From assembly GCA_030550275.1 (NCBI GenBank), contig JAUQPR010000005.1:19899-83898 (forward strand): DNA of 64,000 nucleotides, read 5' to 3'. Positions 10,444-63,375 of this stretch are shown here, piece by piece. A model generated the notes under the pieces. That model saw only the letters and a list, made by a program, of their open reading frames with translations, made no database searches and was not told where the DNA came from. A program made the translations under genes and the position numbers. This DNA comes from Bacteroidota bacterium (GTDB lineage Bacteria > Bacteroidota > Ignavibacteria > Kapaibacteriales > HRBIN21). Numbering within the stretch: position 1 is the stretch's first letter; each line of letters starts with the position of its first letter.

Positions 10444-10516
10444 GGGCCGGTAGCTCAGTTGGGAGAGCGCCAGAATCGCACTCTGGAGGTCGGGAGTTCG
10501 AATCTCCTCCGGTCCA
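10444..10516 (+). tRNA. tRNA-Ala (anticodon CGC)
   Basis: Hand-folded cloverleaf: 7-bp acceptor with the G3:U70 Ala identity pair, D-stem GCTC/GAGC, anticodon stem CCAGA/TCTGG with loop ATCGCAC, and T-loop TTCGAAT. Confidence 0.85.
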
Positions 10517-10527
10517 CCCGTTGGCGT

Positions 10528-10600
10528 TGCCCCGTGGTGTAACTGGCAACACGCCTGACTCTGGATCAGGAGAGTCCAGGTTCGAGTCCTGGCGGGGCAG
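10528..10600 (+). tRNA. tRNA-Gln (anticodon CTG)
   Basis: Hand-folded: acceptor TGCCCCG/CGGGGCA with U1:A72, anticodon stem CCTGA/TCAGG with loop CTCTGGA, T-loop TTCGAGT, discriminator G. Confidence 0.8.
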
Positions 10601-10620
10601 CAACCCACTTCCCCGAAAGG

Positions 10621-11274: not shown

Positions 11275-11292
11275 ACACCTGCGGTATGCACG

Positions 11293-13014: not shown

Positions 13015-13027
13015 GTTTCCGCCGGCT

Positions 13028-14758
13028 ATGTCGGCGCGATTTTGTTTATTGCGTTCCCGACAGTGCGCCAAGCTGGGGAGAGGAGGGCGCTCTTTGACAA
13101 TCGGGCTGCTGGTAGCCGCCGCACTCATTGGCTGCCAGGGAAGTCGAGAGCCTGACCCACGCCACAGCTTCATCTACAACGAACCCGAGGGCATCACAAC
13201 GCTCGATCCGGCGCACATGAGCTACGTTGCCGCCATCTGGGTCGGCACGCAGCTCTACAACGGATTGGTCGAGCTGGATACAGCCCTGCGCGTTGTGCCC
13301 TGCCTGGCACGGGCATGGGAGGTGGATTCCACGGGAACGCGCTGGCGCTTCCATCTGCGCACGGACGTGTACTTCCACGATAACCCCTGCTTTGGGGCAT
13401 CGCCGCGCCGGCTGCGCGCGGAGGATGTCAAGTTCTCCTTCGAGCGGCTCTGTGATGCCCGAACCCGCTCGCCCGGGCTGTGGGTCTTCTGGGGAAAGCT
13501 CCGCGGAGCAAAGGAGTTCCACGCTGCCACCCGCCAGGGGCGCTCTCCGGCAGGGGGAATCCCCGGCATTCGGGTGCTCAACGATAGCACGGTCGAACTG
13601 GAGCTGGAGCGCCCGTTTGCCCCATTCCTGGCGCTGCTCACGCTGCCCTACTGCTGGATCGTCCCGCGCGAGGCAGTCGAGCACTACGGAGAGGACTTCT
13701 TCCGCAACCCGGTCGGCACCGGTCCCTTCCAGCTTGCCGAATGGCGCGCGGACGTCCGATTGGTGCTGCGGAGGAACCCGCGCTACTTCAAGCGCGACCC
13801 CCAGGGACGCCGGCTGCCCTACCTGGAGCACGTCGTTGTGCGCTTCCTGCGCGATCCCAAAACCGCCTTCTGGGAGTTCCAGCGTGGGCGACTGGACATG
13901 CTCACCGGCCTTGACCCCGCTGTGCTCCCGCAGGTGCTAACACCCGAGGGAACGCTGCAACCGGCGTTCCGCCACTACCAGTTGCTGCGCGCCCCCGCCC
14001 ATGCGATCGAGTACTACGGCATTCAACTGGACACGACCACCGAGGGCGGGCGCAATTCCCCGCTGGCTCGCTCCCGATTGCTGCGGCAAGCGCTCAACTG
14101 GGCAATCGATCGGGAGCGCATCATCCGCCATGTCCTCCACGGGCTGGCAACGCCGGCGTACTACGGGGTCCTTCCGCCGGGATTCCCAGGCTTCTCCGAG
14201 CAGACGCGGGGATACGGCTACGACCCCGAGCGTGCCCGCCGTCTCCTGGCTGCAGCTGGCTTCCCCAACGGACGCGGATTGCCCCCGCTGGTCCTGCAAT
14301 TGGGGGCAAACCCGCGAACGCTCTCCGTTGCCGAGGCAGTCCAGCAACAGCTCGCCGAGCTGGGAATTCGAGTCGAGCTGCGCCAGGTCAGCTTCCCACA
14401 ACACCTCTCGATGGTGCGCGAAGGGCGCTGCATGCTCTGGCGCACCAACTGGATCGCCGATTACCCCGACCCGGAGAACTTCCTGGCGCTCTTCTACTCC
14501 GCCTACGCTGCCCCGGGCGGACCCAATACAACGCGCATCCGCTCAAGTGCGCTGGATTCGCTCTACGAGCGCGCCCTTGCCGAGCCTTCCCAACACCGCC
14601 GCTTTGAGCTGTACCGCCGTATGGAGGCGCTGGTGCTGCAGGAAGCCCCGTGGGTCTTCCTGTACTATCCCCACGTGATTCGCCTGCTCCAGCCATCGGT
14701 TCAGGGGATGCACGTAGACGGGAGCGACCGGCTTGTGCTGGAGCACGTCCGCAAGTGA
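13028..14758 (+). CDS. ABC transporter substrate-binding lipoprotein, family 5 (paralog)
   Basis: Paralog of the upstream gene with the same motifs (…WRADVRLVLRRNPRYF…, …NWIADYPDPENF…) and lipobox LIGC. Start is either the ATG at 13028 or a TTG at 13094 preceded by GGAGG. Confidence 0.75.
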   Translation: MSARFCLLRSRQCAKLGRGGRSLTIGLLVAAALIGCQGSREPDPRHSFIYNEPEGITTLDPAHMSYVAAIWVGTQLYNGLVELDTALRVVPCLARAWEVDSTGTRWRFHLRTDVYFHDNPCFGASPRRLRAEDVKFSFERLCDARTRSPGLWVFWGKLRGAKEFHAATRQGRSPAGGIPGIRVLNDSTVELELERPFAPFLALLTLPYCWIVPREAVEHYGEDFFRNPVGTGPFQLAEWRADVRLVLRRNPRYFKRDPQGRRLPYLEHVVVRFLRDPKTAFWEFQRGRLDMLTGLDPAVLPQVLTPEGTLQPAFRHYQLLRAPAHAIEYYGIQLDTTTEGGRNSPLARSRLLRQALNWAIDRERIIRHVLHGLATPAYYGVLPPGFPGFSEQTRGYGYDPERARRLLAAAGFPNGRGLPPLVLQLGANPRTLSVAEAVQQQLAELGIRVELRQVSFPQHLSMVREGRCMLWRTNWIADYPDPENFLALFYSAYAAPGGPNTTRIRSSALDSLYERALAEPSQHRRFELYRRMEALVLQEAPWVFLYYPHVIRLLQPSVQGMHVDGSDRLVLEHVRK

Positions 14759-44543: not shown

Positions 44544-45755
44544 ATGACCTCTGCCGTTGCCTCGCATCGCCGCGCCCTTGGCATCCTGTTCCTGGCGGTG
44601 TTAACCAATCTCATCGGCTTCGGCATCATCATCCCGCTGCTGCCCTTCTATGGGCAAGCCATGGGGGCGTCGGAGCTACAGATTGGGCTGCTGTTCGCCT
44701 CCTTCTCGGTTGCGCAGCTCCTGAGCTCGCCCGTGTGGGGGACGCTTTCGGACCGGTACGGGCGCAAACCCTTCCTGTTGCTGGGATTGCTGGGCGCGGC
44801 TGCCGGATTTGTCATCATGGCGCTGGCACCATCGCTGGAATGGCTCTTCATCGCCCGCCTTGTGGACGGCGCCTGCGGCGGGATGATCGCCACCGTGCGG
44901 GCATACCTGTCGGATGTGCTCGAGGAGCGGGAGCGCGCACGGGGATTTGGATTCATCGGGGCAGCCTTCGGCATCGGCTTCATCGCTGGTCCGGCATTGG
45001 GGTCGCTCCTGGTTCAGTGGAACCTGAAAGCCCCGGCATGGGCTGCTGCGGCGCTGAGTATGTTGGCAGCGGCAGTGGTGCTGCTGTGGCTGCCCGAACC
45101 CTCGCAGCATCGCCCACTCCAGCGGGGAATCCTCGTCCGGCGCTTTGCAGAGCTGTGGGGATTGCCCGCCCTGCGTCCGCTGCTACTGTTCGACCTGCTC
45201 TACTGGAGCTGCCAGGCGGTCTACCAGACCGGCTTTGCGCTCTTCCTGCATCGGCGCTTTGGCGCGAGCGAAGCACAGGTCGGCGCGCTGCTGGCAGTTG
45301 CCGGAGGCATCGGAGTGTTGACACAGCTTGTGCTGGTTGGACGCGTGACACGGCGTTGGGGCGAAACGCGCACCCTTGTGGTCGGCACACTCCTGGCAGC
45401 CCTCGGGTTGGGCGCGGCAGCGCTCGTTCCGACAATCCCGCTGTTTGTGCTCTGCCTGGTACCGGCGGCGGTCGGTGCCGGGCTTGCTTCCCCCGCCCTG
45501 CTGAGCCTGCTGAGCCGCACCACGCCACAACCTTTGCAGGGGAGCCTGCAGGGCGTGACGACCTCGCTGGAGAGCTTCGCCCGCATCGTCGGTCCCATCT
45601 GGGGCAACGGGCTGTTGCAGTTCGGGCTCTCACTGCCCTTCCTTTCTGCAGCTGCTGTGCTGCTTGGAGTAAGCGTTGCTGCTGGTCAGTACCACGAGCG
45701 CTATGCACTGGCTCCCGATGCAACCGCGCAGAGCCCTGCTGAGCGTGTGGGATAA
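44544..45755 (+). CDS. MFS transporter (Tet/TCR-like)
   Basis: 12 TM helices. MFS motif A GTLSDRYGRKP. Confidence 0.8.
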   Translation: MTSAVASHRRALGILFLAVLTNLIGFGIIIPLLPFYGQAMGASELQIGLLFASFSVAQLLSSPVWGTLSDRYGRKPFLLLGLLGAAAGFVIMALAPSLEWLFIARLVDGACGGMIATVRAYLSDVLEERERARGFGFIGAAFGIGFIAGPALGSLLVQWNLKAPAWAAAALSMLAAAVVLLWLPEPSQHRPLQRGILVRRFAELWGLPALRPLLLFDLLYWSCQAVYQTGFALFLHRRFGASEAQVGALLAVAGGIGVLTQLVLVGRVTRRWGETRTLVVGTLLAALGLGAAALVPTIPLFVLCLVPAAVGAGLASPALLSLLSRTTPQPLQGSLQGVTTSLESFARIVGPIWGNGLLQFGLSLPFLSAAAVLLGVSVAAGQYHERYALAPDATAQSPAERVG

Positions 45756-47241
45756 ACGCGGCATCACCGAGTTCGCTGCCGCCCTGGCGGAATTGGGCGT
45801 GGAACTCATCGCTTCGGAGGGCACCGGCGCCACCCTGCGTGCAGCGGGCATCCCCGTGCGCTCCCTCGGCGAACTTTTGGGAGCGACAGAGCTGCTCGAC
45901 GGACGGGTCAAGACGCTCCATCCCCTGCTGCATGCAGCAATCCTGGCGCGGCGTGACCGCCCGGAGCATCTGCAGCAGCTTGAGCAGCTTGGCATCGCTC
46001 CAATCGAGCTCGTCGTGGTGAACTTCTACCCCTTCCAGGCAATGGAGCGCTCCGGAGCTGCCCTGCCGGAGCTGCTGGAGTTCATCGACATCGGTGGTCC
46101 GGCGCTGGTGCGCGCTGCTGCCAAAAACTACCCATGGGTGGCGGTGGTGACCTCCCCGAGGCAGTACGAGGAGGTCATCGCCGAGCTGCGGCAGCACGGC
46201 TCCCTCTCGGAGGAGCTGCGCCGGCGCTACGCTGCCGAGGCGTTCGCCCTCACCGCCGCGTACGACGCTGCAATTGCCCGTGCGCTCAGCACCGAGCCCT
46301 TCCCACCGCAGTGGAGCGTGAGCCTGCCGCAGGTCCAGCGTCTGCGGTACGGAGAGAATCCCCACCAGCAGGGCTGCCTCTACGGTGATGCCTTCGGCGA
46401 ACTCTTCGAGCAGCTCCACGGCAAGGAGCTCTCGTACAACAACGTGCTCGACCTGGACGCGGCTGTTCGCCTAATCCGCGACTTCCCCGAGCCGACAGTT
46501 GCCATCCTCAAGCACACCACGCCCTGCGGGGTTGGCAGCGCTCCCGCGCTTGAGCACGCCTGGGAGAAAGCCCTTGCAACCGATCCAGTCTCGGCATTCG
46601 GCGGCATCGTTGTCACCAACAGAGCCGTCACGCGCGCGCTGGCGGAGCGGCTCTCGGAGCTCTTCCTGGAGATCATCGTTGCCCCGGAGTTTGCCGAGGA
46701 TGCCTTGGAGGTGCTGCAGCGCAAGCGGAATCTGCGTCTGCTGCGCTACCGTGCCGAGCTCCTGGCGCGGGCAGATGCGCTGGAGTTCCGCAGCATCCTG
46801 GGCGGAGCATTGGTGCAGAGCCCGGATATCGCCGTACTGCCTCCGGAGGGCTGGCAGGTGGTCACGCACCGGGCTCCAACGGAGCAGGAAGCCGCTGCAC
46901 TGGAGTTCGCCTGGCGCGTTGTCAAGCACGCAAAGTCGAACGCTGTGGTGTTTGCCGCGCCCGACCGCACCTTAGCCATCGGTTGCGGGCAGCCCTCGCG
47001 CGTGGATGCCGTGCGCGTTGCCATCCGCAAAGCCGCCGATGTGGGCATCTCGCTGGAGGGGTCGGTGATCGCCTCCGACGCCTTCTTCCCCTTTCCCGAT
47101 GCGCTCCAGGAAGCCATCCATGCCGGTATCACTGCTGCAGTCCAGCCCGGCGGCTCCGTGCGCGATGCCCTGGTCATCGAGGCTGCCAATGCCGCCGGCA
47201 TCGCCATGGTCTTCACCGGCATGCGCCACTTCCGGCATTGA
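45718..47241 (+). CDS. purH: Bifunctional AICAR transformylase / IMP cyclohydrolase
   Basis: MQPRRALLSVWDKRG… (MGS-like domain) followed by the AICARFT domain. About 507 aa. Confidence 0.9.
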   Translation: MQPRRALLSVWDKRGITEFAAALAELGVELIASEGTGATLRAAGIPVRSLGELLGATELLDGRVKTLHPLLHAAILARRDRPEHLQQLEQLGIAPIELVVVNFYPFQAMERSGAALPELLEFIDIGGPALVRAAAKNYPWVAVVTSPRQYEEVIAELRQHGSLSEELRRRYAAEAFALTAAYDAAIARALSTEPFPPQWSVSLPQVQRLRYGENPHQQGCLYGDAFGELFEQLHGKELSYNNVLDLDAAVRLIRDFPEPTVAILKHTTPCGVGSAPALEHAWEKALATDPVSAFGGIVVTNRAVTRALAERLSELFLEIIVAPEFAEDALEVLQRKRNLRLLRYRAELLARADALEFRSILGGALVQSPDIAVLPPEGWQVVTHRAPTEQEAAALEFAWRVVKHAKSNAVVFAAPDRTLAIGCGQPSRVDAVRVAIRKAADVGISLEGSVIASDAFFPFPDALQEAIHAGITAAVQPGGSVRDALVIEAANAAGIAMVFTGMRHFRH

Positions 47242-47559
47242 AGCAGGGCTCTTCGCCGCGCACTCCAAGCACACTCGGGCGTTTGCCCAAGCCCGACCCG
47301 AGGGGCAGATTGTGCAGCAGCTCGGCACACAGATCCCCTGGCACCACCACGCTCGCCTCACCCAGAGTCTGCCCGCCGAGCTGCAGGGAAGCTGCCGAGT
47401 ATTGAGGAGCTCAAAAGAGAACCCGCGCGATAGCACCCCAAGAGGCAGTACCGCCGCCCAAGGCTTGCCTGACATTCCCTGCGACGCGCGTAAATTAGCA
47501 CGCCGAGCGCTCGATGTGCTTTCTCTGCTATACTTGGGCGAAAGTGGAGAGGAGGTGCT

Positions 47560-47760
47560 ATGGCGAAGAGGGCGCAACCCACAACCTCGTCCGCCACGTT
47601 GGGCTTCGAATCCCAGCTCTGGGCTGCCGCCAATGCCCTGCGCGGTTCCATGGACGCGGCGGAGTACAAGCACGTCGTCCTGGGGCTCATCTTCCTGAAG
47701 TACATCTCCGACGCCTTCGAGGAGCATTACGGTTACTTTTTGGCAACCATGGAGGAATGA
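47560..47760 (+). pseudogene. Remnant of a type I R-M hsdM gene, HsdM_N first part, truncated after 66 codons
   Basis: …[36 protein letters not shown]… is the canonical start of the HsdM N-terminal domain. A stop follows at codon 67. Its last codons GGAGGAATGA supply the RBS for mrr. Confidence 0.6.
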
Positions 47761-47763
47761 AGC

Positions 47764-48663
47764 ATGCCCATTCCTGATTACCAATCGCTCATGTTGCCTC
47801 TCCTTGAGCTGTTGGAGGACGGCAAGGAACACCGGCTACGCGACGTGATATCTGCACTGGAGCAGCAGTTTGGCTTGACCGAGGAGGAGCGCAAAGCTCT
47901 CCTTCCAAGCGGGCAGCAGCCTATTTTTCATAACCGGGTAGGATGGGCAAGGACATACCTCAAGAATGCTGGGCTCTTGGAGGCACCGCAGCGAGGTTGG
48001 ATACGAATCAGCGGGCGAGGCTTGGAGGTACTTAAGCAAAAACCAGAGCGGATTGACGTGAATTTCCTTATGCAGTTTGAGGAGTTCAGGACCTTTCGAT
48101 TCTCGCGACAGCGGACGCCAGCCGAGTCCAATGCAGCAGATATCGAAACCCCCGAGGAGCTTCTGGCAAGCGCGTATGACATGCACAAGCGAAGCGTCCT
48201 ATCCGAGCTACTCGAACTGGTCAAGAAAGCCTCTCCTGAGTTCTTCGAGCGCCTGGTTGTAGAGCTGTTGGTCAAAATGGGGTACGGTGGTTCATACAAA
48301 GAAGCTGCGCAAGCTGTCGGCCGGAGCGGAGATGAAGGTGTAGACGGAGTTATTAAGGAAGACCGGCTCGGGCTCGATGTGATCTATCTCCAAGCAAAAC
48401 GCTGGGAAGGACCTGTTGGTAGACCTGAACTGCAAAAGTTCGCTGGAGCACTCCAGGGGCTCCGTGCCGGCAAAGGAGTATTCCTCACTACCTCAAGCTT
48501 CACAAGAGATGCGATCGACTATGCAGACCGACTCGGAATCAAAATCGTGCTCATTGACGGACAGCGCCTGGCTGAACTCATGTTCGAATACGGCGTCGGG
48601 GTATCGACTGTATCTACGTACGCTGTCAAAAAGGTCGACCATGACTTTTTCCTTGAAGAGTGA
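47764..48663 (+). CDS. mrr: Mrr restriction system protein (type IV, modification-dependent restriction)
   Basis: Mrr_N winged-helix N-terminus (…[10 protein letters not shown]…) and Mrr_cat PD-(D/E)xK C-terminus (…GDEGVDGV…IYLQAKRW…). Confidence 0.85.
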
Positions 48664-48667
48664 CGTC

Positions 48668-48929
48668 ATGTCCTCCAACCAGTCCGGCGTAGGCGAAATC
48701 CGCAAGAACATCATCGAAGCCGACCTGGTGGACCGCGCCATGGAGGCGGTGGAGCGGGACAACCCCTCCCTCAAGGGCGTCCTCCCCAAGGACTACGCGC
48801 GTCCGGCGCTCGACAAGACCCGTCTCGGCCAGCTCATAGACCTGATCAGCAACATCAAAGTCGGCGATGAGGAAAGCCGCTACAGCACCCTGCTCGACCC
48901 ATGCGAAGGTAGCACGCTGGAGGCAGACC

Positions 48930-48937
<8 letters not shown>
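48668..48937 (+). pseudogene. Second remnant of the old hsdM (HsdM_N second part), ends overlapping the start of the intact hsdM
   Basis: …[40 protein letters not shown]… corresponds to residues ~95–150 of HsdM proteins, alignable with the intact hsdM downstream. It diverges and stops at 48937. Confidence 0.5.
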
Positions 48938-50534
<1,597 letters not shown>

Positions 50535-50547
50535 AGGGCTGTAAGCG

Positions 50548-53500
50548 ATGAGTCCGCAAGTTTCATCTGGAGGAGCAGCCGCCGCCGGCGGTATGGATTT
50601 CCAGCACCGCGTTGCAGCCTGGGTAGCCGTCCACGTTCTCGCCGAAAAGGCTGCAACCCCTCCGTGGGACCTCCCCGCAGCCACGGTTCTTGAGTGGTTC
50701 CAATGTGAGACCGGCCATCCCGTTGACGATCTCCTCGTGAGAACCTCGGGCAGCGGGCTCGTTTTCTCTCAGGTCAAGCGCCGGCTCAGCCTCTCGTCGG
50801 ATGCAGCTTCGGATCTCGCATCCGCCCTCGATCAGTTTGTCCGCCAATTCATCACGTGTCACAACAAGAGCGGTGGATCACGCCCTACGGATCGCCCCCT
50901 TGATCCCGCAAGAGATCGGCTAGTGCTAATCACATCTTCCGTTAGCTCTGAGCCAATCCGGGGTCACTTCGCGACCGTCCTCCGTCGGGCACGAAACCTG
51001 ACCCCGGGTCAGGCCCTCGACGAAGCTGCCACCAACGACGAGGAGCGCAGGGCGTTTTCGGTAGTCCGGGAGCATATCCGCAGATCGTGGCAGGCGATCC
51101 TCAACGCCGAGCCGTCGGAGGCGGAGCTTCGCCAACTGCTTTCCCTGATCCGGATTCATGTTCTCGACGTTGAAGCCGAGGGGCCAAGCGAGCGGGAGGC
51201 GAAGCACGTGCTCCGCTCCGCAGTTCTGCGCGATCCCGACCAAGCGGACCAGGCATGGACCACACTAGTCACTTTGTGCGCGGGCTACGCGGCGCAGCGT
51301 TCCGGTGCCGATCGCGCTATTCTACAACGCGAACTCCTCAACGCGGGATGTGACCTCAAGGTCCCACGCAGTTACGAAGAAGACATTGAAAAACTTCGGA
51401 AGCATTCTTACCAGATTTTGTCTGCCCTCGGCCATCTTGCCCAAATCCGAGTAGGCTCAACGACGATCAGAATTCGTCGGGCGTGCACCGAAGCGCTGCG
51501 CCAGGCGGCTGAGGAGGGATCAATCCTCGTCACTGGTGAACCAGGTGCCGGGAAATCAGGGGCTCTCCACGACTTCGTCGAGGCGCTTCGTGACGGTGGC
51601 AGGGATTGTGTCCTCCTCGCCGTCGATCGGCTGGCCGCCCAGAGTCTCGGCCAGCTTCGGGAAGAGCTCGGCCTGGAGCACGAATTACCTGAAGTTTTTG
51701 AAAACTGGCCCGGCCTGCAACCGGCGTTCCTTGTAATCGACGCGCTGGATGCCGCTCGCGCGGATCCCGCGGCCGCAATGGTCCGTGATCTCATCCGCCA
51801 AGTGGTGGAAAGGAACGGGCGCTGGCGGGTGGTGGCCTCCATCCGCAAGTTTGATCTCCGTTATGGACCAGACATCCAGCAACTGTTTGCCGGAAATCCG
51901 CCGACGCAGTTTGCAGACGCTGAGTTCCAGCGGGTTCGACACCTGAATGTTCCGCGGTTTTCCGACGACGAACTCAGCCGGATTGGCTCGGAGTCTCCGC
52001 CGCTACAACGGCTCATTACCAACGCCCCTGCAGAACTCCGGGACCTCCTCCGCGTGCCGTTCAATCTCCGCTTGGTGGCGGAGCTACTCGGCGGAGGCGT
52101 CAGCCCGGACGAACTTACACCGGTAAAAACCCAGCTCGAGCTGCTGGATCGCTACTGGCGGCATCGCGTGGTGGGCTTCGATGGCCAAGGAGACGGGCGC
52201 GAGGCGATCTTGCGCGAGGTGTGCGAACGAATGGTGGAATCCCGTGTGCTCCGCGCAGACCGCGCCGCTGTCGCGCGCCCGGAGACGAGCGCCCTGCTCA
52301 ACGATCTCCTCAGTACGCAGGTCCTTATCGAGTGGCAGGCGTCACCGGACGCGCAACCTGACCGGTACACCCTCGCTTTCTCGCACCATGTTCTTTTCGA
52401 CTATGCGGTGGCGCGCCTTCTATTTCGAGGCGATCCCGAAAACGTCATGCACCGCCTTTCCGAAGACCCTGAGCTCGTGATATTCGTTCGCCCCAGTTTG
52501 GTTCTTCACTTCCGACACCTCTGGGACTCAAGTCCAGATCGTCACCCATTCTGGGAGTTGACCTTTCGGGTCATTGCTGACTCTGAGATTCCCGAAGTTG
52601 GGAAACTTATCGGCCCAGCTGTGGCTGCCGAGCTGGCTCGTTCCACTCGAGACCTAGAACCCGTCTGCGCAGCCCTTGAGCATGAGGATGAGGAAAAGCA
52701 CGGGCCTGCAGATGGCGCCATTCGCCACCTGGTCGGGGCTCTACTAGCTGGGATGGGGGGCAAGACTCTTGCAGGTCCCAATGCCGGTCCGTGGTGCGAA
52801 CTGCTGGAACGCGTCAGCCGGAGGCTCCGGCCATCGGTCGCTTACACCGTTCGAGCCCTGCTCGCAACCATGTGTGACCACCCTGAGAGCTTTACCCCCG
52901 AGCAGCGGACCGCCGCCGGACATACAGCGCGACGGCTTCTGGAGTTTGCATGGTCTCACGTGCCTAGGGATTCTTGGCTGGTGGTCCATGCGCTCCAGTG
53001 CGTTTGCCGAACGTTCGAGAGCGACCCCGCGGCATCTAGCCTGCTTATTCGCCGTTGTCTGGAGCCTGTGCACATTTCGGAGTTCGGCTTTGAAGAGATT
53101 CCTTGGCTGGCCCGAGAAGTTATACGGCTCATTAAGCTCGATCCGACATTAGTGGCGAGCATCTATTGCGCCGCCTTTGGCCACCAAGAGGAATCACAGG
53201 AGCCGACCCCCATCGGAGGCAGCCGCATCTTCCCTCTGGTTTCGAACCGCCGCCAGCACTATGAGAGCGCATTGTACCAGCTGGCCGAGTCCTTCCCCGC
53301 ATTCCTGGAAACGGCGCCAGAAGAGGCGACACGCACTCTTGTGCGTGTTCTGGAATCGTATGTCGGCCAAAGGCATTCTCAGCCCTTCCGTGAGACGGAG
53401 CAGGCGGTCTTCGACTTCCGTGATCAGCAAGCACGTCTGCTCGAAGATTACAGCTCCGTCTGGGACGAGGGAGATACCTACCGCGAAGAAGAGCCCATCA

Positions 53501-55536
53501 AGATGCTAGATGCCTTCCAGAACTTCCTGGAAGGACTAGCAACCGAAAAAGACAGCAAAAGCACGCTCCGTGCTTTGATCGGGATTTTCGTCTCGGAAAA
53601 CCAGCTCGCTGTTGCCTGGCGGCGGCTTCTTCTTGCGGGGGCCCGTTTTCCTGAAACCCTAGGCTTGGAGATATTGCCGCTCGCCTGGGCGGTTCCGATT
53701 CTTACGTGCCATGACACCACTGTGCCGGCTGGTGATTACCTCAAGGCAGTATTCCCGATCCTGCGAGGCAATCAGCGTCGGAAGATCGAACGGGCTATTT
53801 TGGGCATCCCTGACGCGATGCCGGCAGATCGGCGCGAGGAGGCCGAACAAGTTCGGGACCGGCTTCTCGGATGCCTGCCCCTCGCCGCCATCGTTACCGA
53901 CGAGGCGCACCAGAAATTAGCAGAGCTTCAAGCCCATAACGCTGTCCCACCTAATCAACCACCCGTGGGCTTAGAAGAGGAGTGGTTCGGCACTTACGGG
54001 GAGGAGGACTATCTCGAGGATCAAGGGGTCCCGGTCGAAGCCGAGGGAAACCGAAGGATCCGCGAGCTGGAGCGGCCGGTCAAGGAGTTCGCTGACCGGC
54101 ATCTCAACTCCACCCCTACCTTGGAAGAAGCCCACTCCGTGCTTCCGGCCCTGCGTGCCCTTTACGACGCTCTGGGTCGCGCCAACGCGGACGACGTACA
54201 CCCAAAGCAAAAGGACTATGCCTGGGGAATCCTCGCGCAGGGATGTGCGCGTATCGCAAGAGCCGAGGGTCTCTCCGGTGGCGAGGAGCCCGGCACGTTC
54301 ATAATGGCCGTTCTCCTCGAGGCGTGCCGCCACCATGAGCCGGTCCATGACCCTCAGTACGATGCCCAGTTCGACGAACATCCTTCATGGGGAAGCCCAG
54401 CAGCCAGGATCGACGCGGCCCAAGGGCTGATCATTCTGGCGAGTCACCAAGACTGCGCCACGCCATATGTCCTCAAAGCGATAGAAGCGCTAAGCGACGA
54501 CCCAGTTCCAGCTGTGCGCTATCAGATCGCTGCTCGCTTAGATGCCCTTTACCGGACGGCCCACGAGCTGATGTGGTCCATCATCGAGCGGCTGGCTCGT
54601 AAAGAGGCAAGCCGTGGAGTCCTTCAGGGACTGCTTGTCGGTCCCCTCAGCCGGCTAGTCGGCGCAGAACCCGATCGCGTGGCCAATGTTACGAAGGCCA
54701 TCTTCGAGCGGATCAGCGCCGGTCCTGGCGCGAACCGGGTCCGCGAGTTCGGCATGAGTATCCTCGCGGATCTCTACATCTGGCGCGATCATCCGCTATC
54801 CCGCGACGTAGTCCACGAGATCGTCTCGAATCCCGCCGGCTATCCCGCAGAGGCGGGTCACGTCTTGGGGCAACTTCGCAACCCCATCACCCACGGCCCA
54901 ACGGACCCCTCCGATCCCGAGGCTGACGCGATTCGCAGGCGGGCGCTGGAACTGCTCGAGCGTCTACTCCGCTCGTCACGAGACGGCCTCAAGGAGCTTG
55001 AAGGCCGTCATGCTGGGGTCGGCTTCGGCAAGTGGCCCCAGGCCGATCAGGAAACAGCTCAGTCGCTGATGCGTCTCATCGATGCCATCGGAAGGGAAGT
55101 CTATTTCGCCTCGGGAGCGTACGACGCCAAGAGCCAGGGGCAAGCACACGGCGTGCGTGAAGTCAGTCCTCAGTCCAAGCGGTTCTACCAGGAAGCCGGT
55201 GCGATCCTCGACGAGCTCACGGACGCACCCCTTCCCAGTGTCGCGCACCACCTGGTGGAGACCCTGGAGCACTTCATCCCCGTGGATCCCCGCGGTGTCT
55301 TCCTTCGCATCCACCGTGTGGTTTCAGCCGGGCAACAGGCAGGCTATCAGTACGAATCCATGGCCGCTGAGCTCATCGTCCGACTCGTCGAGCGCTACCT
55401 GGCTGAGTACCGGACGCTACTTCAGCAGGACGTCGCCTGTCGCAGGGCTCTGATCGAAGTACTGGATGTGTTCGTCAAGGCCGGCTGGCCGAGCGCGCGA
55501 AGGCTTGCGTATCGCCTGGAGGAGATTTTCCGGTAA
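50548..55536 (+). CDS. 1,662-aa NACHT/STAND-like P-loop NTPase with ~320-aa N-terminal domain and ~1,200-aa C-terminal helical-repeat region; candidate antiphage defense protein embedded in the type I R-M operon
   Basis: Single uninterrupted ORF, same strand, 13 nt after the hsdM stop and 15 nt before the hsdS start. Walker A ILVTGEPGAGKS (aa 326–337, nt ~51535) and NACHT-type Walker B FLVIDALDAAR (aa ~394–404). The long Leu/Ala/Arg-rich helical repeats include HEAT-like DDPVPAVRYQIAARLDAL. No obvious housekeeping homolog is recognisable. Confidence 0.6.
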   Translation: MSPQVSSGGAAAAGGMDFQHRVAAWVAVHVLAEKAATPPWDLPAATVLEWFQCETGHPVDDLLVRTSGSGLVFSQVKRRLSLSSDAASDLASALDQFVRQFITCHNKSGGSRPTDRPLDPARDRLVLITSSVSSEPIRGHFATVLRRARNLTPGQALDEAATNDEERRAFSVVREHIRRSWQAILNAEPSEAELRQLLSLIRIHVLDVEAEGPSEREAKHVLRSAVLRDPDQADQAWTTLVTLCAGYAAQRSGADRAILQRELLNAGCDLKVPRSYEEDIEKLRKHSYQILSALGHLAQIRVGSTTIRIRRACTEALRQAAEEGSILVTGEPGAGKSGALHDFVEALRDGGRDCVLLAVDRLAAQSLGQLREELGLEHELPEVFENWPGLQPAFLVIDALDAARADPAAAMVRDLIRQVVERNGRWRVVASIRKFDLRYGPDIQQLFAGNPPTQFADAEFQRVRHLNVPRFSDDELSRIGSESPPLQRLITNAPAELRDLLRVPFNLRLVAELLGGGVSPDELTPVKTQLELLDRYWRHRVVGFDGQGDGREAILREVCERMVESRVLRADRAAVARPETSALLNDLLSTQVLIEWQASPDAQPDRYTLAFSHHVLFDYAVARLLFRGDPENVMHRLSEDPELVIFVRPSLVLHFRHLWDSSPDRHPFWELTFRVIADSEIPEVGKLIGPAVAAELARSTRDLEPVCAALEHEDEEKHGPADGAIRHLVGALLAGMGGKTLAGPNAGPWCELLERVSRRLRPSVAYTVRALLATMCDHPESFTPEQRTAAGHTARRLLEFAWSHVPRDSWLVVHALQCVCRTFESDPAASSLLIRRCLEPVHISEFGFEEIPWLAREVIRLIKLDPTLVASIYCAAFGHQEESQEPTPIGGSRIFPLVSNRRQHYESALYQLAESFPAFLETAPEEATRTLVRVLESYVGQRHSQPFRETEQAVFDFRDQQARLLEDYSSVWDEGDTYREEEPIKMLDAFQNFLEGLATEKDSKSTLRALIGIFVSENQLAVAWRRLLLAGARFPETLGLEILPLAWAVPILTCHDTTVPAGDYLKAVFPILRGNQRRKIERAILGIPDAMPADRREEAEQVRDRLLGCLPLAAIVTDEAHQKLAELQAHNAVPPNQPPVGLEEEWFGTYGEEDYLEDQGVPVEAEGNRRIRELERPVKEFADRHLNSTPTLEEAHSVLPALRALYDALGRANADDVHPKQKDYAWGILAQGCARIARAEGLSGGEEPGTFIMAVLLEACRHHEPVHDPQYDAQFDEHPSWGSPAARIDAAQGLIILASHQDCATPYVLKAIEALSDDPVPAVRYQIAARLDALYRTAHELMWSIIERLARKEASRGVLQGLLVGPLSRLVGAEPDRVANVTKAIFERISAGPGANRVREFGMSILADLYIWRDHPLSRDVVHEIVSNPAGYPAEAGHVLGQLRNPITHGPTDPSDPEADAIRRRALELLERLLRSSRDGLKELEGRHAGVGFGKWPQADQETAQSLMRLIDAIGREVYFASGAYDAKSQGQAHGVREVSPQSKRFYQEAGAILDELTDAPLPSVAHHLVETLEHFIPVDPRGVFLRIHRVVSAGQQAGYQYESMAAELIVRLVERYLAEYRTLLQQDVACRRALIEVLDVFVKAGWPSARRLAYRLEEIFR

Positions 55537-55551
55537 TGGTAGCGAAGGTGC

Positions 55552-56775
<1,224 letters not shown>

Positions 56776-56780
56776 ACGCC

Positions 56781-59672
56781 ATGAGCATCGGCGCCGAACG
56801 GACCGCGGTGCAGAACCCATTCCTCCGCTACGCCGTGGAGGTGGGCTGGACCTACCTGCCTCCGGAGGAGGCGACGCGACTTCGCCGGGGGGAGACAGGC
56901 CTGGTGCTGCACGAGGTCCTCGTCCGCCAGCTTCAGGCATTGAACCCGGGCGTGGTGGACCACCAGCGGGCCGAGGACATCGCGGGGCGTCTGGTGCGCG
57001 TTCGTCCCAGCATCGAGGGGAATCTGGAGGCCTGGGAGTTCCTCAAGGGGTTGAAGACGGTCTTCATTCCGGAAGAGAGACGGGAGCGTAACGTCCGCCT
57101 GATAGACCCCGTACGTGTCGAGGCGAACTCGTTCCACGTGACGGACGAGCTTCCTTTTCAGAGCGGCACCCGGCGTATCCGGCTGGACCTTGTCTTCTTC
57201 GTGAATGGGATTCCGGTGATCGTGGTGGAGACGAAAGCTTCGAGGCACCTGGATGGAATGACCCGGGCACTCGAGCAGATCCGCCGTTATCACGCCGAAG
57301 GCCCCGAACTCATGGCGGTGGCGCAGCTCTACGCCCTCACGCACCTGGTTCAGTTCCTCTACGCCGCCACCTGGAGCCTTTCGCCCAAGGATCTCCTCAA
57401 CTGGAGGGACGAGCAGGCGGGTGACTTCGAGACTTTGGTGAAGACCTTCATCGCTCCGTCCCGCGTACTGCGGGTGCTCACGGAGTTCGTCCTGTTCGTG
57501 CGGCGCGATGGCGAGCTCTCCAAGGTGGTGCTGCGTCCCCACCAGATGCGGGCCGTTGAGCGCGTGCTCGCGCGAGCGCGGGACCCACACAAGCGTCGGG
57601 CACTTGTCTGGCACACCCAGGGCTCCGGGAAGACCTACACGATGATCACCGTCGCCCGGCGCCTGATTCAGGACCCGGCATTCGGAAACCCCACGGTCCT
57701 CATGCTCGTGGACCGCAACGAACTGGAGCAGCAGCTCTTCACCAACCTCGAGGCGGTTGGTCTCGGGCATGTCGAGGTGGCGCAGAGTAAGAGGCACCTT
57801 CAGGACCTCCTTCGCTCAGACCGTCGGGGGATCATCGTCTCCACCATCCACAAGTTCGAGGGGATCCCGGCCAACATCTGCACGCGCACGAACGTCTTCG
57901 TGCTGGTGGACGAAGCACACCGCTCCACGGGCGGCGATCTGGGCAACTACCTCATGGGTGCGCTACCTAATGCGACCTACATCGGCTTCACCGGTACCCC
58001 GATAGACCGAACCGCCTACGGCAAAGGGACGTTCAAGGTCTTCGGCGTGGACGACCCGCCTCACGGATATCTCGACCGCTACTCCATCCGCGAGTCCATC
58101 GCCGACGGTACCACGGTACCGCTGCACTATGCGCTCGCCCCCAACGAGCTCCTGGTGGACCGCGACACCCTCGACCGAGAATTCTTGGCTCTGACCGAAC
58201 TCGAGGGAGTGAGTGACATCGAGGACATCAACCGCGCCCTCGAACATGCGGTCACCCTTAGGAACATGCTCAAGTCGCCGGAGCGCATGCGGCGAGTCGC
58301 GGAGTTCGTGGCGCGCCATTTTCGGGAAAAGATCGAGCCGATGGGCTACAAGGCCTTCCTGGTCGCAGTCGACCGAGAGGCCTGTTGCCGCTACAAGGCT
58401 CTGTTGGACGAGTATCTCCCCCCGGACTACTCGAGGGTGGTGATCAGCCCGGCCGCCAACGACCCTCCCGAACTTCGCGCCTATCATCTGAGCGAGGACG
58501 AGGAGCGACGCATCCGCGAGGCCTTCCGCAAACCGGACGAGCTTCCGAAGATTCTCATCGTGACCGAAAAGCTCTTGACCGGGTTCGACGCGCCGATCCT
58601 CTACTGCATGTATCTGGACAAGCCCATGCGCGATCATGTGCTGCTGCAGGCGATCGCGCGAGTCAATCGGCCGTACGAGGACGAGACCGGTCGGCGCAAG
58701 CCCTCAGGCTTTGTCCTCGATTTCGTGGGCATCTTTGAAAACCTGGAGCGCGCCCTGGCCTTCGATTCTCAGGACATTCAGGGGGTAGTGGAGGGCCTGG
58801 ACGTCCTGAAGGAGCGGTTTCGGCAGCTTATGGAACAAGGGCGCCGCGACTACCTCGGCATCGTGGCAGGGCTTTCAGGTGACAAGGCGGTGGAAGCTGT
58901 CTTGGAGTACTTCCGTGACCCGGACGGGCGTGACAAGTTCTACCGTTACTTTCGAGAGCTCGAGGAAGTCTACGAGATCCTCTCGCCCGATGAATTCCTT
59001 CGACCGTTCCTCGATGACTACCGTGCCTTGAGCGAGATGTACCAGGTCCTGCGCTCCAGCTATGAGGCCCGCCCCATCGCCAGCCTGGATTTCCTCAAGA
59101 AGACCGCTCGCCTTGTCCAGGAGCACACACATGGGTCCATGGTTCGGGAGCCACCGGCGATTTACGGGATCGACGTAGAGACGCTCGGTCGCTTGGCGCA
59201 GGACGACGCGCCGGATGCGGTCAAAGTATTCAACTTGCTCAAGGCGATTCGGCAGATTGTAGAGGCGCAGGCTTCAGAGCAGCCCTATCTGATCTCCATT
59301 GGGGAGCGGGCGGAAGCCATTGTGCAGGCTTTTCAAGAGCGACAGATCACCACAGAGGAAACGCTCCGGCAGCTCGTGGACGGACCGGTGCAAGAATTGC
59401 AGGAAGCGGAGTCTGCCCGAGCCAGCATGGACCTCTCGGCAGAAGCCTTCACGATCTTCTGGCTGCTCAGCCGCGAAGGAGTTCAGGAAAGCGAGGCGGT
59501 TGCCCGTCAGATTGCAGACGTACTGGACCGATTCCCACACTGGCACACGAGCGAGCAGCACGAACGCGAGGTGAGGAGGGAAATCTACAAGGCGCTCCTG
59601 CCGACCGGCGTCGCGGACCCGGTGTCTGTTGCTGACCGGCTACTGCAGGTCCTCCGCGAGTCGCACCGATGA
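56781..59672 (+). CDS. hsdR: Type I restriction enzyme endonuclease/helicase subunit
   Basis: N-terminal nuclease (…VFFVNGIPVIVVETK…), SF2 helicase motifs (TQGSGKT; DEAH as VDEAHRS; …QAIARVNR…), C-terminal HsdR-type helical domain. 5 nt after hsdS. Confidence 0.9.
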   Translation: MSIGAERTAVQNPFLRYAVEVGWTYLPPEEATRLRRGETGLVLHEVLVRQLQALNPGVVDHQRAEDIAGRLVRVRPSIEGNLEAWEFLKGLKTVFIPEERRERNVRLIDPVRVEANSFHVTDELPFQSGTRRIRLDLVFFVNGIPVIVVETKASRHLDGMTRALEQIRRYHAEGPELMAVAQLYALTHLVQFLYAATWSLSPKDLLNWRDEQAGDFETLVKTFIAPSRVLRVLTEFVLFVRRDGELSKVVLRPHQMRAVERVLARARDPHKRRALVWHTQGSGKTYTMITVARRLIQDPAFGNPTVLMLVDRNELEQQLFTNLEAVGLGHVEVAQSKRHLQDLLRSDRRGIIVSTIHKFEGIPANICTRTNVFVLVDEAHRSTGGDLGNYLMGALPNATYIGFTGTPIDRTAYGKGTFKVFGVDDPPHGYLDRYSIRESIADGTTVPLHYALAPNELLVDRDTLDREFLALTELEGVSDIEDINRALEHAVTLRNMLKSPERMRRVAEFVARHFREKIEPMGYKAFLVAVDREACCRYKALLDEYLPPDYSRVVISPAANDPPELRAYHLSEDEERRIREAFRKPDELPKILIVTEKLLTGFDAPILYCMYLDKPMRDHVLLQAIARVNRPYEDETGRRKPSGFVLDFVGIFENLERALAFDSQDIQGVVEGLDVLKERFRQLMEQGRRDYLGIVAGLSGDKAVEAVLEYFRDPDGRDKFYRYFRELEEVYEILSPDEFLRPFLDDYRALSEMYQVLRSSYEARPIASLDFLKKTARLVQEHTHGSMVREPPAIYGIDVETLGRLAQDDAPDAVKVFNLLKAIRQIVEAQASEQPYLISIGERAEAIVQAFQERQITTEETLRQLVDGPVQELQEAESARASMDLSAEAFTIFWLLSREGVQESEAVARQIADVLDRFPHWHTSEQHEREVRREIYKALLPTGVADPVSVADRLLQVLRESHR

Positions 59673-60001
59673 AACCGATGAAGAAGCGAAAGGATCGACT
59701 CAGCTGGGCGCCCCTTGAAGACATCGTCCCGGTGGAGGTCTTCAAGGCGGAGGTGCGTGCCTGGGCCGAGCGCATTGGCGTCCAGCCGCGTGAGATTCAC
59801 GTTCGGCCGATGAAGCGAAAATGGGCGAGCTGCTCCTCGAACGGCCGCCTGACGTTCGATCTTGACCTTTTGCGCCAGCCCTCGAAGGTTCGGGCAGAGG
59901 TCATCATTCACGAGCTGCTCCATTTGAAGCTTCCGAACCATGGCCGCCTGTTCCGCGCCCTTTTGAAGGCCTACAAAGCACAGCAATTGGAGAGCGATTA
60001 G
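59669..60001 (+). CDS. DUF45 / M48-like (WLM/SprT-type) zinc metallopeptidase
   Basis: HExxH motif [10 protein letters not shown]. 110 aa. ATGA overlap with the hsdR stop. This family commonly follows hsdR genes. Confidence 0.7.
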
Positions 60002-60026
60002 GAAACATCCGGCGATCCGCGACGAC

Positions 60027-60760: not shown

Positions 60761-61375
60761 AACAACGGCGTGCAGCGGACGGCGTCTCGCCGCCGCTGAA
60801 CTGGAGCGTTCGCTACCCCGGATACTTCCACGCAGTCAAAGGTACAGAACCAGATCGCGCCGGTGATCCATGTTGTCAAGCATTGCTTGCTGTTCTGCGC
60901 CTGAACTCAATCTGGCTGTACAGAATCGGCAGGACGGTAAAGCCTATCGGTCTCCTCCAGCTCGGAAGGAGACAGCTTGAAGAACCTTCTTCTTTCCCAC
61001 CTTACAGCTCGACTTCGCGTGGGGGAGCAAGCCTGCAAGTCACATCGGACTTTTGCTTGACAGTCGCAGAGCCGTTTTTTAAATTTGCAATGTAGGGGTG
61101 TGCAGTACATACTTGACCCCGACGGCAAGGGGGTTCAAAGCCCAGTCGACGCCTTGTGAACTAGAGGCGTGCCTGACGGCAGTCGGGACTACGCGCCGAA
61201 GTGTAGGTCACGTAGGCGGACTTCAGATGGCAACCAGATTACACAACAACCATCTGAGGAGCAAAGATGATGGAAACAAAGATGATGGAAACAAAAAGTT
61301 GACAACTCACCCGCCAGCGCATGTTATGCCGACAACTTGCGGTATAAGCGTGTTAGGTGGAAACCATACAATAGT
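60761..61375. repeat. Direct repeat copy 1 (~615 bp)
   Basis: About 97% identical to 62757..63375 with an offset of ~1,996–2,000 nt. Contains a tandem 15-mer AAAGATGATGGAAAC ×2 (61264..61293) followed by TTGACA (61299..61304). GC is lower than the flanking genome. Confidence 0.8.
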
Positions 61376-61954
61376 TCGGCGTCATCAATTGCTTCCAAGG
61401 GGTTCCCATGAGCTACGAATTGTCCCCTATGCTTCCCCCAAAGCGACCGTCTGTACTCGTCACGGTGCTCAGATGGGTTGCGGTGTTACCAGCTGCTATT
61501 GGTGCCTGGATAGTAGTTCAACTCTTAGTTATCTTGGCGAACGCAGCGGTTATACCTCGATGATCGGATTGGTGGTTGGAGTTAATCAATAGTGCCGCGT
61601 CCTCTTATGCTTTTGTGTACGCCGACGCAGCTACTGCCCCAAACACAACTTCATCGTAGGAATTGTCGTTGCTATTCTCTACGGCATATTCATGGTCGTC
61701 ATCATCACTGCGGGTTTCTTTATCGAAACGTCCGTCCCGCTCTGGCGGCTTGTACTCTCGGGCGTTATCAGTCTAGTCGCGACCATCGCTGCCGTCGTAA
61801 AATTGCGCGAAGAATACTGACGGGTGCGACGCCGAACAAATCGTTGGACGCGAGCGGCGGGAGCGCTTCTCGCAACTAGCTTGGTGCGGCGAAGGATGCT
61901 TTGATTCCCGCCGCCGCGTCAACTCAATCGTTAGGCGGCTATGAGGATCGCGCG

Positions 61955-62434
61955 ATGAACGTAAAGGACACGCTGGCCGGGCTCGGTGGCCTCCTCATCA
62001 TGGGAGCCTTCCTCGTCGTCGGCATCGCAATCGCCGGTGTCTTTATCTTCGGTGCGGCTTGGGCGAGTACGAAGCTACTGCCGTGGTTCTCCGTTCTGAC
62101 ACGGGTGGCCTTCGGCATCGTTGTCTTCATCCTTTTGCCCCTTGCGATTCCGAAAGCGACTCGCGGATTCTCAAGCGTGGCGCTTTTCGTCGCGTCCTAC
62201 GTGTTCGGCGCAACGCTCTGGATGAAGGGCCTCTTGTTGACGCTCGCAATCTGGGGCGTGGGCGCTGTCTTCATCGGTCTCTTCCTCGCGGGCGTCGGCG
62301 TAGTACCGATCGCGATGCTGGCGACCCTGATCAAGGGCATGTGGGGCCAGCTCGTCGAACTCGTGCTGCTCGCGATCATGACCTTCGGCAGCCGGATCGG
62401 CGCCATGGCCCTTGCGGAAAGCCTAGAAGGCTGA
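61955..62434 (+). CDS. Hypothetical polytopic membrane protein
   Basis: ATG at 61955 is preceded by GAGGA. 4–5 TM helices (…LLIMGAFLVVGIAIAGVFIFGAAW…). Lies between the two direct repeats. Confidence 0.4.
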   Translation: MNVKDTLAGLGGLLIMGAFLVVGIAIAGVFIFGAAWASTKLLPWFSVLTRVAFGIVVFILLPLAIPKATRGFSSVALFVASYVFGATLWMKGLLLTLAIWGVGAVFIGLFLAGVGVVPIAMLATLIKGMWGQLVELVLLAIMTFGSRIGAMALAESLEG

Positions 62435-62437
62435 GGC

Positions 62438-62758
62438 ATGCGGCGAATCTGGGTTCCACAACTCCTTGCCAGCTTGATGCTGCTCTGGGCCCTCAACCCG
62501 GAGAACCCGTATGGGTACTACATTCTGCTTCGCTGGGTCTGCTGCGGCGTCTTCGCCTACCTGGCTTTCAAGGCACTTGATCAGGGGCATCAGGGCTGGG
62601 TCTGGGTTCTGGGAATCACGGCCGCCGTGTACAACCCGATCTTTAGAGTGCACCTCACGAGGGAGATCTGGTCTGTTGTCAATGTCGTCACGATAGGAAT
62701 CGCGGTGGCGTCAGTCTTCGCCATCAAGTTCAAGGACGAGAAGCACGACACCGCCTAA
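62438..62758 (+). CDS. Hypothetical small membrane protein
   Basis: 106 aa with 3 TM helices. Starts 4 nt after the upstream gene, so probably co-transcribed. Confidence 0.4.
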   Translation: MRRIWVPQLLASLMLLWALNPENPYGYYILLRWVCCGVFAYLAFKALDQGHQGWVWVLGITAAVYNPIFRVHLTREIWSVVNVVTIGIAVASVFAIKFKDEKHDTA

Positions 62759-63375
62759 CAACCGGTTGCAGCGGACGGCGTCTCGCCGCCACTGAGCTGG
62801 AGCGTTCGCTACCCCGGATACTTCCACGCAGTCAAAGGTACAGAACCAGATCGCGCCGGTGATCCATGTTGTCAAGCATTGCTTGCTGTTCTGCGCCTGA
62901 ACTCAATCTGGCTGTACAGAATCGGCAGGACGGTAAAGCCTATCGGTCTCCTCCAGCTCGGAAGGAGACAGCTTGAAGAACCTTCTTCTTTCCCACCTTA
63001 CAGCTCGACTTCGCGTGGGGGAGCAAGCCTGCAAGTCACATCGGACTTTTGCTTGACAGTCGCAGAGCCGTTTTTTAAATTTGCAATGTAGGGGTGTGCG
63101 GTACATACTTGACCCCGACGGCAAGGGTGTTCAAAGTCCAATCGCCGCCTGGTCAACTAAGCGCCTGCCTGACGGCAGTCGGGCCTACGCGCCGAAGTGT
63201 AGGTCACGTAGGCGGACTTTAGATGGCAACCAGATTACATAACAACCATCTGACTGAAGAGCAAAGATGATGGAAACAAAGATGATGGAAACAAAAAGTT
63301 GACAACTCACCCGCCAGCGCATGTTATGCCGGCGGAAAGCGGCAGAGGCGCGTTAGGTGGAAACCAGATAGACTA
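62757..63375. repeat. Direct repeat copy 2 (~619 bp)
   Basis: See copy 1. It has the same internal 15-mer tandem (63264..63293) and TTGACA. Copy 2 carries a 4-nt insertion (…CTGACTGAAGAGC vs CTGAGGAGC) and a few substitutions. Confidence 0.8.

Follow-up and report, generated by a model that had tools for sequence, protein, structure and literature searches.

We analysed a 64,000-nucleotide stretch of a Bacteroidota bacterium assembly (contig JAUQPR010000005.1, positions 19,899 to 83,898; hereafter the window, with positions counted from its first letter), in which an intact mrr gene, coding for a type IV restriction endonuclease, lies inside the disrupted N-terminal region of hsdM1, the methylase gene of an older type I restriction-modification system. 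The anatomy of the locus, the alleles with an empty site, the junctions of the insert, its mosaicism and the recurrence of the same mrr block in other hsdM contexts were read directly from alignments. The nesting itself probably arose when DNA was exchanged at a defence hotspot by recombination via conserved stretches of hsdM, and the non-functional hsdM pieces probably supply the promoter. The locus is an evolutionary scar, real and largely explained, and not a new kind of system.

Two hsdM1 remnants around an mrr block

Contigs of sister strains (L177-L180 and L185) were obtained via the members of the purH protein cluster. The window is collinear with the sister-strain contigs over 45000-47726, at 97.8-98.3% identity, and the alignment with L177-L180 breaks off precisely at 47726. 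In these strains, the corresponding site downstream of purH is occupied by an intact hsdM1 of 514 codons (HsdM_N and N6_Mtase domains), in an operon with the order hsdM1, yhcG, hsdS, M78 peptidase, DUF4411 and hsdR1 (1045 codons). The amino acids of the first remnant of the window (N1) are identical to codons 1-56 of the intact HsdM of L177. On the other side of mrr, 48722-48856 matches hsdM1 codons 102-146 with 93% identity, and 48667-48736 matches codons 335-358 (L177 10858-10927) with 84% identity. A search with the two fragments joined retrieved P0001, an uninterrupted HsdM N-domain protein of 175 amino acids with the same odd tail as fragment 2, and L091, the 2.1-kb contig that encodes it, where it is followed by the same hsdM2 as in the window.

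The first-pass annotation of this DNA had placed mrr within the N-terminal region of an old hsdM, by insertion or by fusion. The insertion is confirmed by the intact allele at the same site in L177 and L185 and by the uninterrupted one in L091/P0001, and nothing points to a fusion protein. A test set beforehand, that the two flanking pieces be consecutive parts of one HsdM N-domain, was borne out, as they correspond to codons 1-56 and ~102-154. Alignment of both parts to the full HsdM, which had been suggested as a check, gave a deleted segment of 136 nt (codons 57-101), which is replaced in the window by 995 nt (47727-48721).

The fragment-1 open reading frame (ORF; 47560-47760, 66 amino acids) covers only positions 2-41 of the 135 of the Pfam HsdM_N profile. 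Fragment 2 runs from the ATG at 48668 to the TGA at 48935-48937 (89 codons), overlaps the hsdM2 ATG at 48930 and has no match in the Pfam profile search. HsdM_N is thus incomplete and the N6_Mtase domain absent from fragments 1 and 2 by Pfam, which makes them remnants; with no catalytic domain left, the hsdM1 pieces are dead as a methylase. Within N1, a 25-nt stretch (47625-47649) differs from all intact sister alleles and is read as a gene-conversion patch.

The inserted block consists of a 37-nt leader (TTACGGTTACTTTTTGGCAACCATGGAGGAATGAAGC), mrr, a 4-nt spacer and 22 codons of hsdM (C22). At the left joint, which reads ..TTCGAGGARCAT/TACGGTTAC.. (the slash marks the joint), conserved hsdM sequence extends up to ..FEEH. 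The leader includes GGAGGAATGA, holding a Shine-Dalgarno sequence and the stop that closes the fragment-1 frame, which had earlier been taken for hsdM sequence; it belongs to the inserted block, since it is also present in L099 and L100, where an insertion sequence (IS) lies upstream. On the right side, the mrr stop is followed by 4 nt and ATGTCCTC.., with the joint sequence GAAGARTGAYGYCATGTCCTC. The donor type (L093) reads here ..GCCGACCTGGTGGAC/TGCATGG.., the resident hsdM1 (L177) ..GGGGAGCTGGTAGAC/CGCGCCATGGAGGCGG.., and the window ..GCCGACCTGGTGGAC/CGCGCCATGGAGGCGG.., that is, the left half of the donor and the right half of the resident. Donor and resident share a 9-nt microhomology, CTGGTGGAC, with one mismatch to the L177 allele (CTGGTAGAC). 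It joins positions that do not correspond, hsdM codon 357 to codon 105, in the contexts ..EADLVD/CMVALP.. of the donor and ..GELVD/RAMEAVE.. of the resident N-domain.

C22 is 84% identical to the C-part of the resident hsdM1, yet nearly identical to the sequence that follows mrr in L093-L098. In these loci, whose Mrr proteins are 97-98% identical to that of the window, the hsdM C-terminal segment after mrr runs to the natural hsdM end. Judged by these alignments, C22 is foreign hsdM sequence carried in with mrr. Fragment 2, which had been read as a simple continuation of the N-domain register, is instead a three-part chimera: amino acids 1-22 correspond to hsdM codons 336-357, amino acids 23-71 to N-domain codons ~106-154 and amino acids 72-89 to the hsdM2 leader read in frame.

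Past the right joint, the window is identical to the resident L177 allele for ~30 nt and then resembles L091. A one-step insertion into an L091-type allele was rejected, because the first ~20 nt past the joint match L177 and L092, not L091; at least two recombination events are therefore needed. The far end of the old operon is also still present. The 3' remnant of hsdR1 has 88.8% nucleotide identity to L185 19790-20517, the 3' end of a 1045-aa hsdR, and matches positions 94-327 of the 329 of the Pfam profile T1RH-like_C (5e-106). It was also considered as a relative of hsdR2 or of the L012 hsdR, and has no relation to either. The interior of the old system, from hsdM1 codon ~154 to hsdR1 codon ~800, has thus given way to the block 48881-60010, which holds an intact second type I system (hsdM2, ATPase, hsdS2, hsdR2 and YgjP-like gene).

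From these joints we infer the following pathway. The hotspot downstream of purH would at first have held the complete type I operon hsdM1, yhcG, hsdS, M78 peptidase, DUF4411 and hsdR1. In a first event, a promoterless mrr block of ~1 kb would have replaced the 136 nt inside the hsdM1 N-terminal domain region, its donor being another locus whose hsdM already harboured mrr between codons 56 and 336. On the left, the join would have formed by homologous or short-homology exchange at the end of conserved hsdM (..FEEH), and on the right by an illegitimate crossover in the 9-nt microhomology. In a second event, another type I system would have replaced the interior, from hsdM1 codon ~154 to hsdR1 codon ~800, by an exchange anchored in the N-domain stub and in hsdR, the incoming system bringing its own hsdM1-derived N-domain stub. 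As the outcome, the hsdM1 pieces would give promoter and 5' untranslated region to one long transcript of N1, mrr, fragment 2, hsdM2, PDC-M54A, hsdS and hsdR.

The first of these events resembles homology-facilitated illegitimate recombination, by which foreign DNA enters naturally transformable bacteria via one homologous anchor and a microhomology joint. The window has conserved hsdM on one side (codons 1-56, present in donor-type loci and in the resident) and, on the other, the 9-nt microhomology between non-corresponding positions. It differs in having its left crossover right where the homology ends, and the likeness is one of pattern.

Recurrence of the block and its possible vehicles

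A survey of homologous loci for hsdM::mrr junctions, proposed together with the first-pass annotation, covered 160 loci fetched from genome and metagenome collections around relatives of the Mrr. With Mrr identities of 67% or more to that of the window, 22 loci were obtained, and in all but one of them (21 of 22) mrr directly borders hsdM-derived sequence. Around more distant Mrr proteins, hsdM is nearby in 3 of 139 loci, as a separate gene and never nested. The exact left and right joints recur in many loci. The block of the window shares 98-100% identity with those of L093, L094 and L096, with an mrr dS of 0.043-0.049, whereas the N1 flank has a dS of 0.93-1.27 and the DNA further upstream is unrelated. 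Likewise, between L012 and L107 dS is 0.23 for mrr and 0.95 for the C-part. The block is 93-100% identical across genomes of 35-67% GC, and its own GC stays at 53-55% in flanks that range from 35-40% to 67%. Low block dS, high flank dS and varied flank GC together indicate that the same block recently reached different hsdM alleles in different organisms.

The position of the break varies among these loci. In L012 and L107, the left break in hsdM lies nine codons further on and the right one immediately ahead of the NPPF motif; in L101 hsdM is broken at codon ~38; and in L099, L100 and L102 the right side passes into a different hsdM family from "MSSNQSGE" onward. L092 has both joints of the window, and its hsdM1 continues into the catalytic core before a further break. 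A donor-type context is found in L097 (190-10028), a decayed type I locus around hsdM'::mrr whose neighbours are Fic/RhuM, an intact 1004-aa hsdR, AlbA_2/HATPase_c_4, a nucleotidyltransferase and YhcG.

The conserved hsdM frame, the mismatch between the histories of flank and cargo, the microhomology joint and the gene-conversion patch all fit recombination through hsdM. Several observations weigh against it. The left end of the block is fixed to one nucleotide position among hsdM alleles whose differences come as close as 3-17 nt to the joint, and an IS1595-family element in L099 and L100 ends 0-3 nt from the same point, although ordinary homologous recombination is expected to scatter its crossover points. 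Stalling of branch migration at the border of heterology could explain this fixed end. The flanks are moreover diverged, with 70-88% identity, and as such are poor substrates for RecA-dependent recombination. Searches for a vehicle of the block revealed none: the best match was 69% over 29% among PLSDB plasmids, INPHARED phages gave no match, and the best in IMG/VR was 58% at the amino-acid level.

These points bear on an alternative in which the block would be a dedicated mobile cassette (IS-assisted, site-specific or homing-like) that targets a conserved hsdM site. Its left end is invariant to the nucleotide, as seen in an IS-flanked copy and in hsdM alleles of at least four diverged kinds, its near-identical tract ends on the right within ~11 nt in the window, L093 and L094, it has kept the high identity given above in genomes of widely different GC, and Mrr is itself a PD-(D/E)xK-type nuclease. 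In this respect it recalls free-standing homing endonuclease genes and mobile restriction-modification units, which insert into conserved genes: genomes that are unrelated have a nuclease gene at one and the same position of a conserved host gene. The mrr block differs in that no intron or intein keeps the host gene working; hsdM is destroyed, and part of it is deleted. Around the block, neither terminal repeats (inverted or direct) nor a target-site duplication were found, and no recombinase gene accompanies it. Its right junction is not constant, lying at +928 in L099, at +971 in the window and at ~+982 in L093/L094, and in the window it links non-homologous hsdM positions via microhomology. 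The length of hsdM replaced also varies, 136 nt in the window versus ~840 nt in L093-type loci, as is typical of recombination and not of insertion. We therefore regard a dedicated cassette as unlikely.

Two more specific vehicles were rejected. In L099 and L100, the leader follows the IS1595-family element instead of hsdM, with the 3' end of miaA upstream. In L100, where the IS ends next to the block, 31-nt inverted repeats at 124-154 and 999-1029 enclose only the transposase (124-1029), and in both loci no target-site duplication flanks the IS or the mrr block; mrr was thus discarded as a passenger of this element. In the window, no transposase adjoins mrr and no sign of a transposon or IS passenger was seen. 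An integron cassette was also dismissed, inspection by eye, without a dedicated tool, having shown that the ends lack a GTTRRRY core and having revealed neither an attC-like repeat nor an integrase nearby.

The nesting could also be an artefact of metagenome assembly, produced by chimeric joining at k-mers conserved among hsdM genes. Short-read contigs L003, L005, L007, L008 and L174-L176 start or stop inside fragment 1, at ~47697-47727, which points to an assembly-graph branch and to other sequences in the same samples that share this hsdM stretch. Both junctions are nevertheless spanned identically in more than 20 independent contigs (Logan, JGI, ENA and NCBI, from different samples), some of up to 150 kb, and in other contexts allele-specific variants lie 3-17 nt from the junction, so reads must span the joint. 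The probability of an artefact is consequently negligible.

Within the reading of recombination through hsdM, a more far-reaching proposal is possible, though we hold it only tentatively: the mrr block may be a recombination-borne "hsdM-replacing" cassette, which enters via the resident hsdM and thereby knocks out an m6A methylase whose product Mrr might attack. Being framed by the most conserved hsdM stretches, the block could enter unrelated genomes by recombining with the resident hsdM. If this is true, a type IV enzyme spreads by displacing type I modification, and remnants of hsdM (and hsdR) are general landing pads for the exchange of defence genes.

Expression of mrr and fate of the hsdM pieces

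The earlier suggestion that the hsdM' promoter drives mrr remains plausible on the signals present. The promoter scan found one sigma-70-like site upstream of hsdM1 (CTGACA-16-TAAATT, 47469-47496), and an extended -10 element, TGcTATACT, was read by eye at 47526-47534 (TG at 47526-47527, TATACT at 47529-47534). The Shine-Dalgarno sequence GGAGAGGAGG precedes the ATG at 47560. Bases 47508-47591, which hold the extended -10, the Shine-Dalgarno sequence and the start codon, show no mismatch to the sister strains with an intact hsdM1. The terminator scan gave no terminator-like site in 47200-49100, and only 49 nt separate the hsdM1 remnant from the start of hsdM2. The leader of mrr, with its 37 nt, is too short for a promoter of its own. 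The short leader, the conserved hsdM1 5' region, the lack of a terminator and the tight spacing together make it most likely that mrr is transcribed from the old hsdM1 promoter, as is probably the whole downstream type I operon. The features listed in the first-pass annotation are all present and need only small corrections of position; the start of fragment 2 lies 4 nt after the mrr stop, not 5, and the TATACT has the coordinates given here.

From fragment 1 to hsdR2 the genes are tightly packed on one strand, with spacings of 3, 4, -8, 13, 18 and 5 nt. mrr thus lies inside an hsd cluster, on the same strand and with operon-like spacing, as described for embedded defence genes. The GC content is 66-67% in the core flank, 54% in mrr and ~61% in the type I genes.

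The mrr gene is intact. The N-terminal winged-helix DNA-binding domain of its product, Mrr_N (PF14338), was matched at residues 6-92 over profile positions 1-87 of 87 (E=4.9e-33), and Mrr_cat (PF04471) over the full profile (E=1.5e-36), with a PD-QxK-type motif (D...QAK) as defined previously (PMC12707154). PADLOC assigned residues 1-297 to mREase_IV (1.7e-83). The dN/dS of mrr against its relatives is 0.09-0.34, and the closest Mrr in genome collections, from a Binatia metagenome-assembled genome, is 91% identical. No sequence in the PDB matched the Mrr of the window at E<=1e-3. Mrr is expected to act as an independent modification-dependent endonuclease, complementing the attack of the type I system on unmodified DNA.

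The hsdM pieces around mrr had a different fate. Frameshifts, stops and deletions are present in the hsdM remnants of L011, L095-L098, L101, L103, L104, L108 and L110, in which mrr is intact. It could still be supposed that the fragments are kept as functional small proteins (partners or regulators of Mrr or of the type I system) or as translated spacers for coupling or polarity on hsdM2. The gaps from fragment 1 to mrr and from mrr to fragment 2 are indeed 3 nt and 4 nt, fragment 2 and hsdM2 overlap by 8 nt, neither fragment ORF is interrupted in the window or in L092-L094, and the C-part ORFs are intact in L012 and L107, with a dN/dS of 0.13. The decay in these other copies, where mrr stays intact, speaks against such a function, as do the missing methylase catalytic domain and the lack of a Pfam match for fragment 2. 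The dS of the C-part is four times as high as the mrr value, which indicates that it evolved separately, within working hsdM genes, and does not indicate selection on the fragments. Selection on the fragments was accordingly rejected, the low C-part dN/dS coming with a dS far above that of mrr. With the decay seen in many copies, the remnants are under no consistent selection, and a retained function is very improbable.

The purH hotspot and its relation to known defence loci

The coordinates of the locus are collected in Table 1.

Table 1. Features of the mrr locus and of the surrounding hotspot in the window.
Feature	Position	Strand	Evidence
purH, core anchor gene left of the defence locus	45676-47241	+	
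5' upstream region of hsdM1	47366-47559	+	homology with variant locus L181 stops at 47365
N1, hsdM1 codons 1-56, 5' remnant of the resident type I methylase gene	47560-47726	+	Pfam HsdM_N E=8.9e-14; collinearity with L177-L180
Block leader, 37 nt, with Shine-Dalgarno GGAGGA (47751-47756) and TGA (47758-47760)	47727-47763	+	identical in L092-L098
mrr, intact type IV (modification-dependent) restriction endonuclease gene, 299 aa	47764-48663	+	Mrr_N, Mrr_cat, PADLOC mREase_IV
C22, 22 codons of foreign hsdM C-terminal methylase part (codons 336-357; by alignment)	48668-48733	+	alignment with L093-L098
Right recombination joint, microhomology CTGGTGGAC	48725-48733	+	three-way alignment of L093, window and L177
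Distal N-domain remnant, hsdM1 codons ~106-154	48734-48880	+	start identical to L177; end resembles L091
hsdM2 5' leader, not from hsdM1, with Shine-Dalgarno GGAGG (48919-48923)	48881-48929	+	same tail and junction in L091/P0001
hsdM2, full-length	48930-50534	+	Pfam, PADLOC
PDC-M54A ATPase gene, 1662 aa	50548-55536	+	Pfam, PADLOC (full length)
hsdS2	55555-56775	+	Pfam, PADLOC
hsdR2	56781-59672	+	Pfam, PADLOC
YgjP-like metallopeptidase gene, end of the incoming type I block	59669-60001	+	Pfam PF01863 5.6e-23
hsdR1 3' remnant, last ~243 codons	60011-60749	+	identity to L185; Pfam T1RH-like_C

The purH site is a polymorphic defence-gene hotspot with at least four states. The locus offers a nucleotide-level, stepwise record of how such a hotspot is rebuilt, since the parental allele in intact form, an allele with an empty site and several intermediates are all at hand. 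An older type I shell took up first a single defence gene and later an entire second restriction system, with the joints in conserved hsd sequence. The recurrence of one mrr block in different hsdM alleles of unrelated genomes suggests that conserved restriction-modification genes can act as recombination anchors that move defence cargo without integrases. If this is general, it would help to explain why embedded defence genes are frequent in type I loci; no new enzyme or defence mechanism is revealed.

The immigration control region of E. coli K-12 (mrr, hsdRMS and mcrBC), with which the first-pass annotation had compared the locus, also has an Mrr-family gene beside a type I system in a variable locus between core genes, its content varying among strains between conserved anchor genes (PMC12707154). 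There, mrr is separate and outside the hsd genes, whereas in the window it lies inside a disrupted hsdM, preceded by a 37-nt leader and followed by a 4-nt trailer. Unlike the E. coli gene, the mrr of the window very probably depends on the promoter of the disrupted hsdM, judging from the expression signals described above. A closer parallel in arrangement is TgvAB of Vibrio cholerae VPI-2, a type IV system embedded in a type I operon (PMC11411939). In both cases a type I cluster contains modification-dependent genes in its own orientation, and the two kinds of enzyme complement each other by targeting modified and unmodified DNA. TgvAB belongs to the GmrSD family and is placed between intact hsd genes, in contrast to the Mrr-family gene in a broken hsdM of the window, where the interrupted host system no longer functions and has in part been overwritten by the second type I system. 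The window also resembles the "embedded" defence candidates of PADLOC, as it has PDC-M54A between hsdM2 and hsdS2.

Type IV genes have thus been described beside type I genes and embedded among them, and the variation here is an mrr inside the hsdM coding region. In the full-text literature, as far as its incomplete coverage goes, type IV genes between hsd genes are described, while neither an mrr nested inside the hsdM coding region nor the recurrence of one mrr block in different hsdM alleles was found.

The gene content of the hotspot varies further among the sister contigs. PDC-M54A is absent from L186-L188, which otherwise have the same mrr arrangement, with hsdM2 (512 aa) directly followed by hsdS; in L190, a gene of 1537 aa stands at the PDC-M54A position. 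In L181, a gene of ~1180 aa with PLDc_2 and an SNF2-type helicase (9769-13311) directly follows purH, and the same gene is found after the hsdR1 remnant in L186, from 14798 onward. This gene probably represents the next resident at the hotspot, and it may have a role in defence. Just past the purH stop, tblastn weakly matched 47246-47353 (36 aa, E=3e-5) to the YhcG/DUF1016 nuclease encoded in the type I operon of the sister strains; this stretch may be older debris at the edge of the hotspot.

In hsdS2, GC falls to 43-44% at 55650-55949 and 56250-56549. These two stretches are presumably its target-recognition domains, and their low GC would suggest an acquisition or exchange separate from the conserved hsdS framework. 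Beyond the hsdR1 remnant, 60761-61366 and 62757-63366 hold two pairs of direct repeats, one of 300 nt (98% identity) and one of 113 nt (90% identity), each pair with its copies separated by ~2 kb; the repeats flank a region with a membrane-like ORF of 177 aa (61901-62434).

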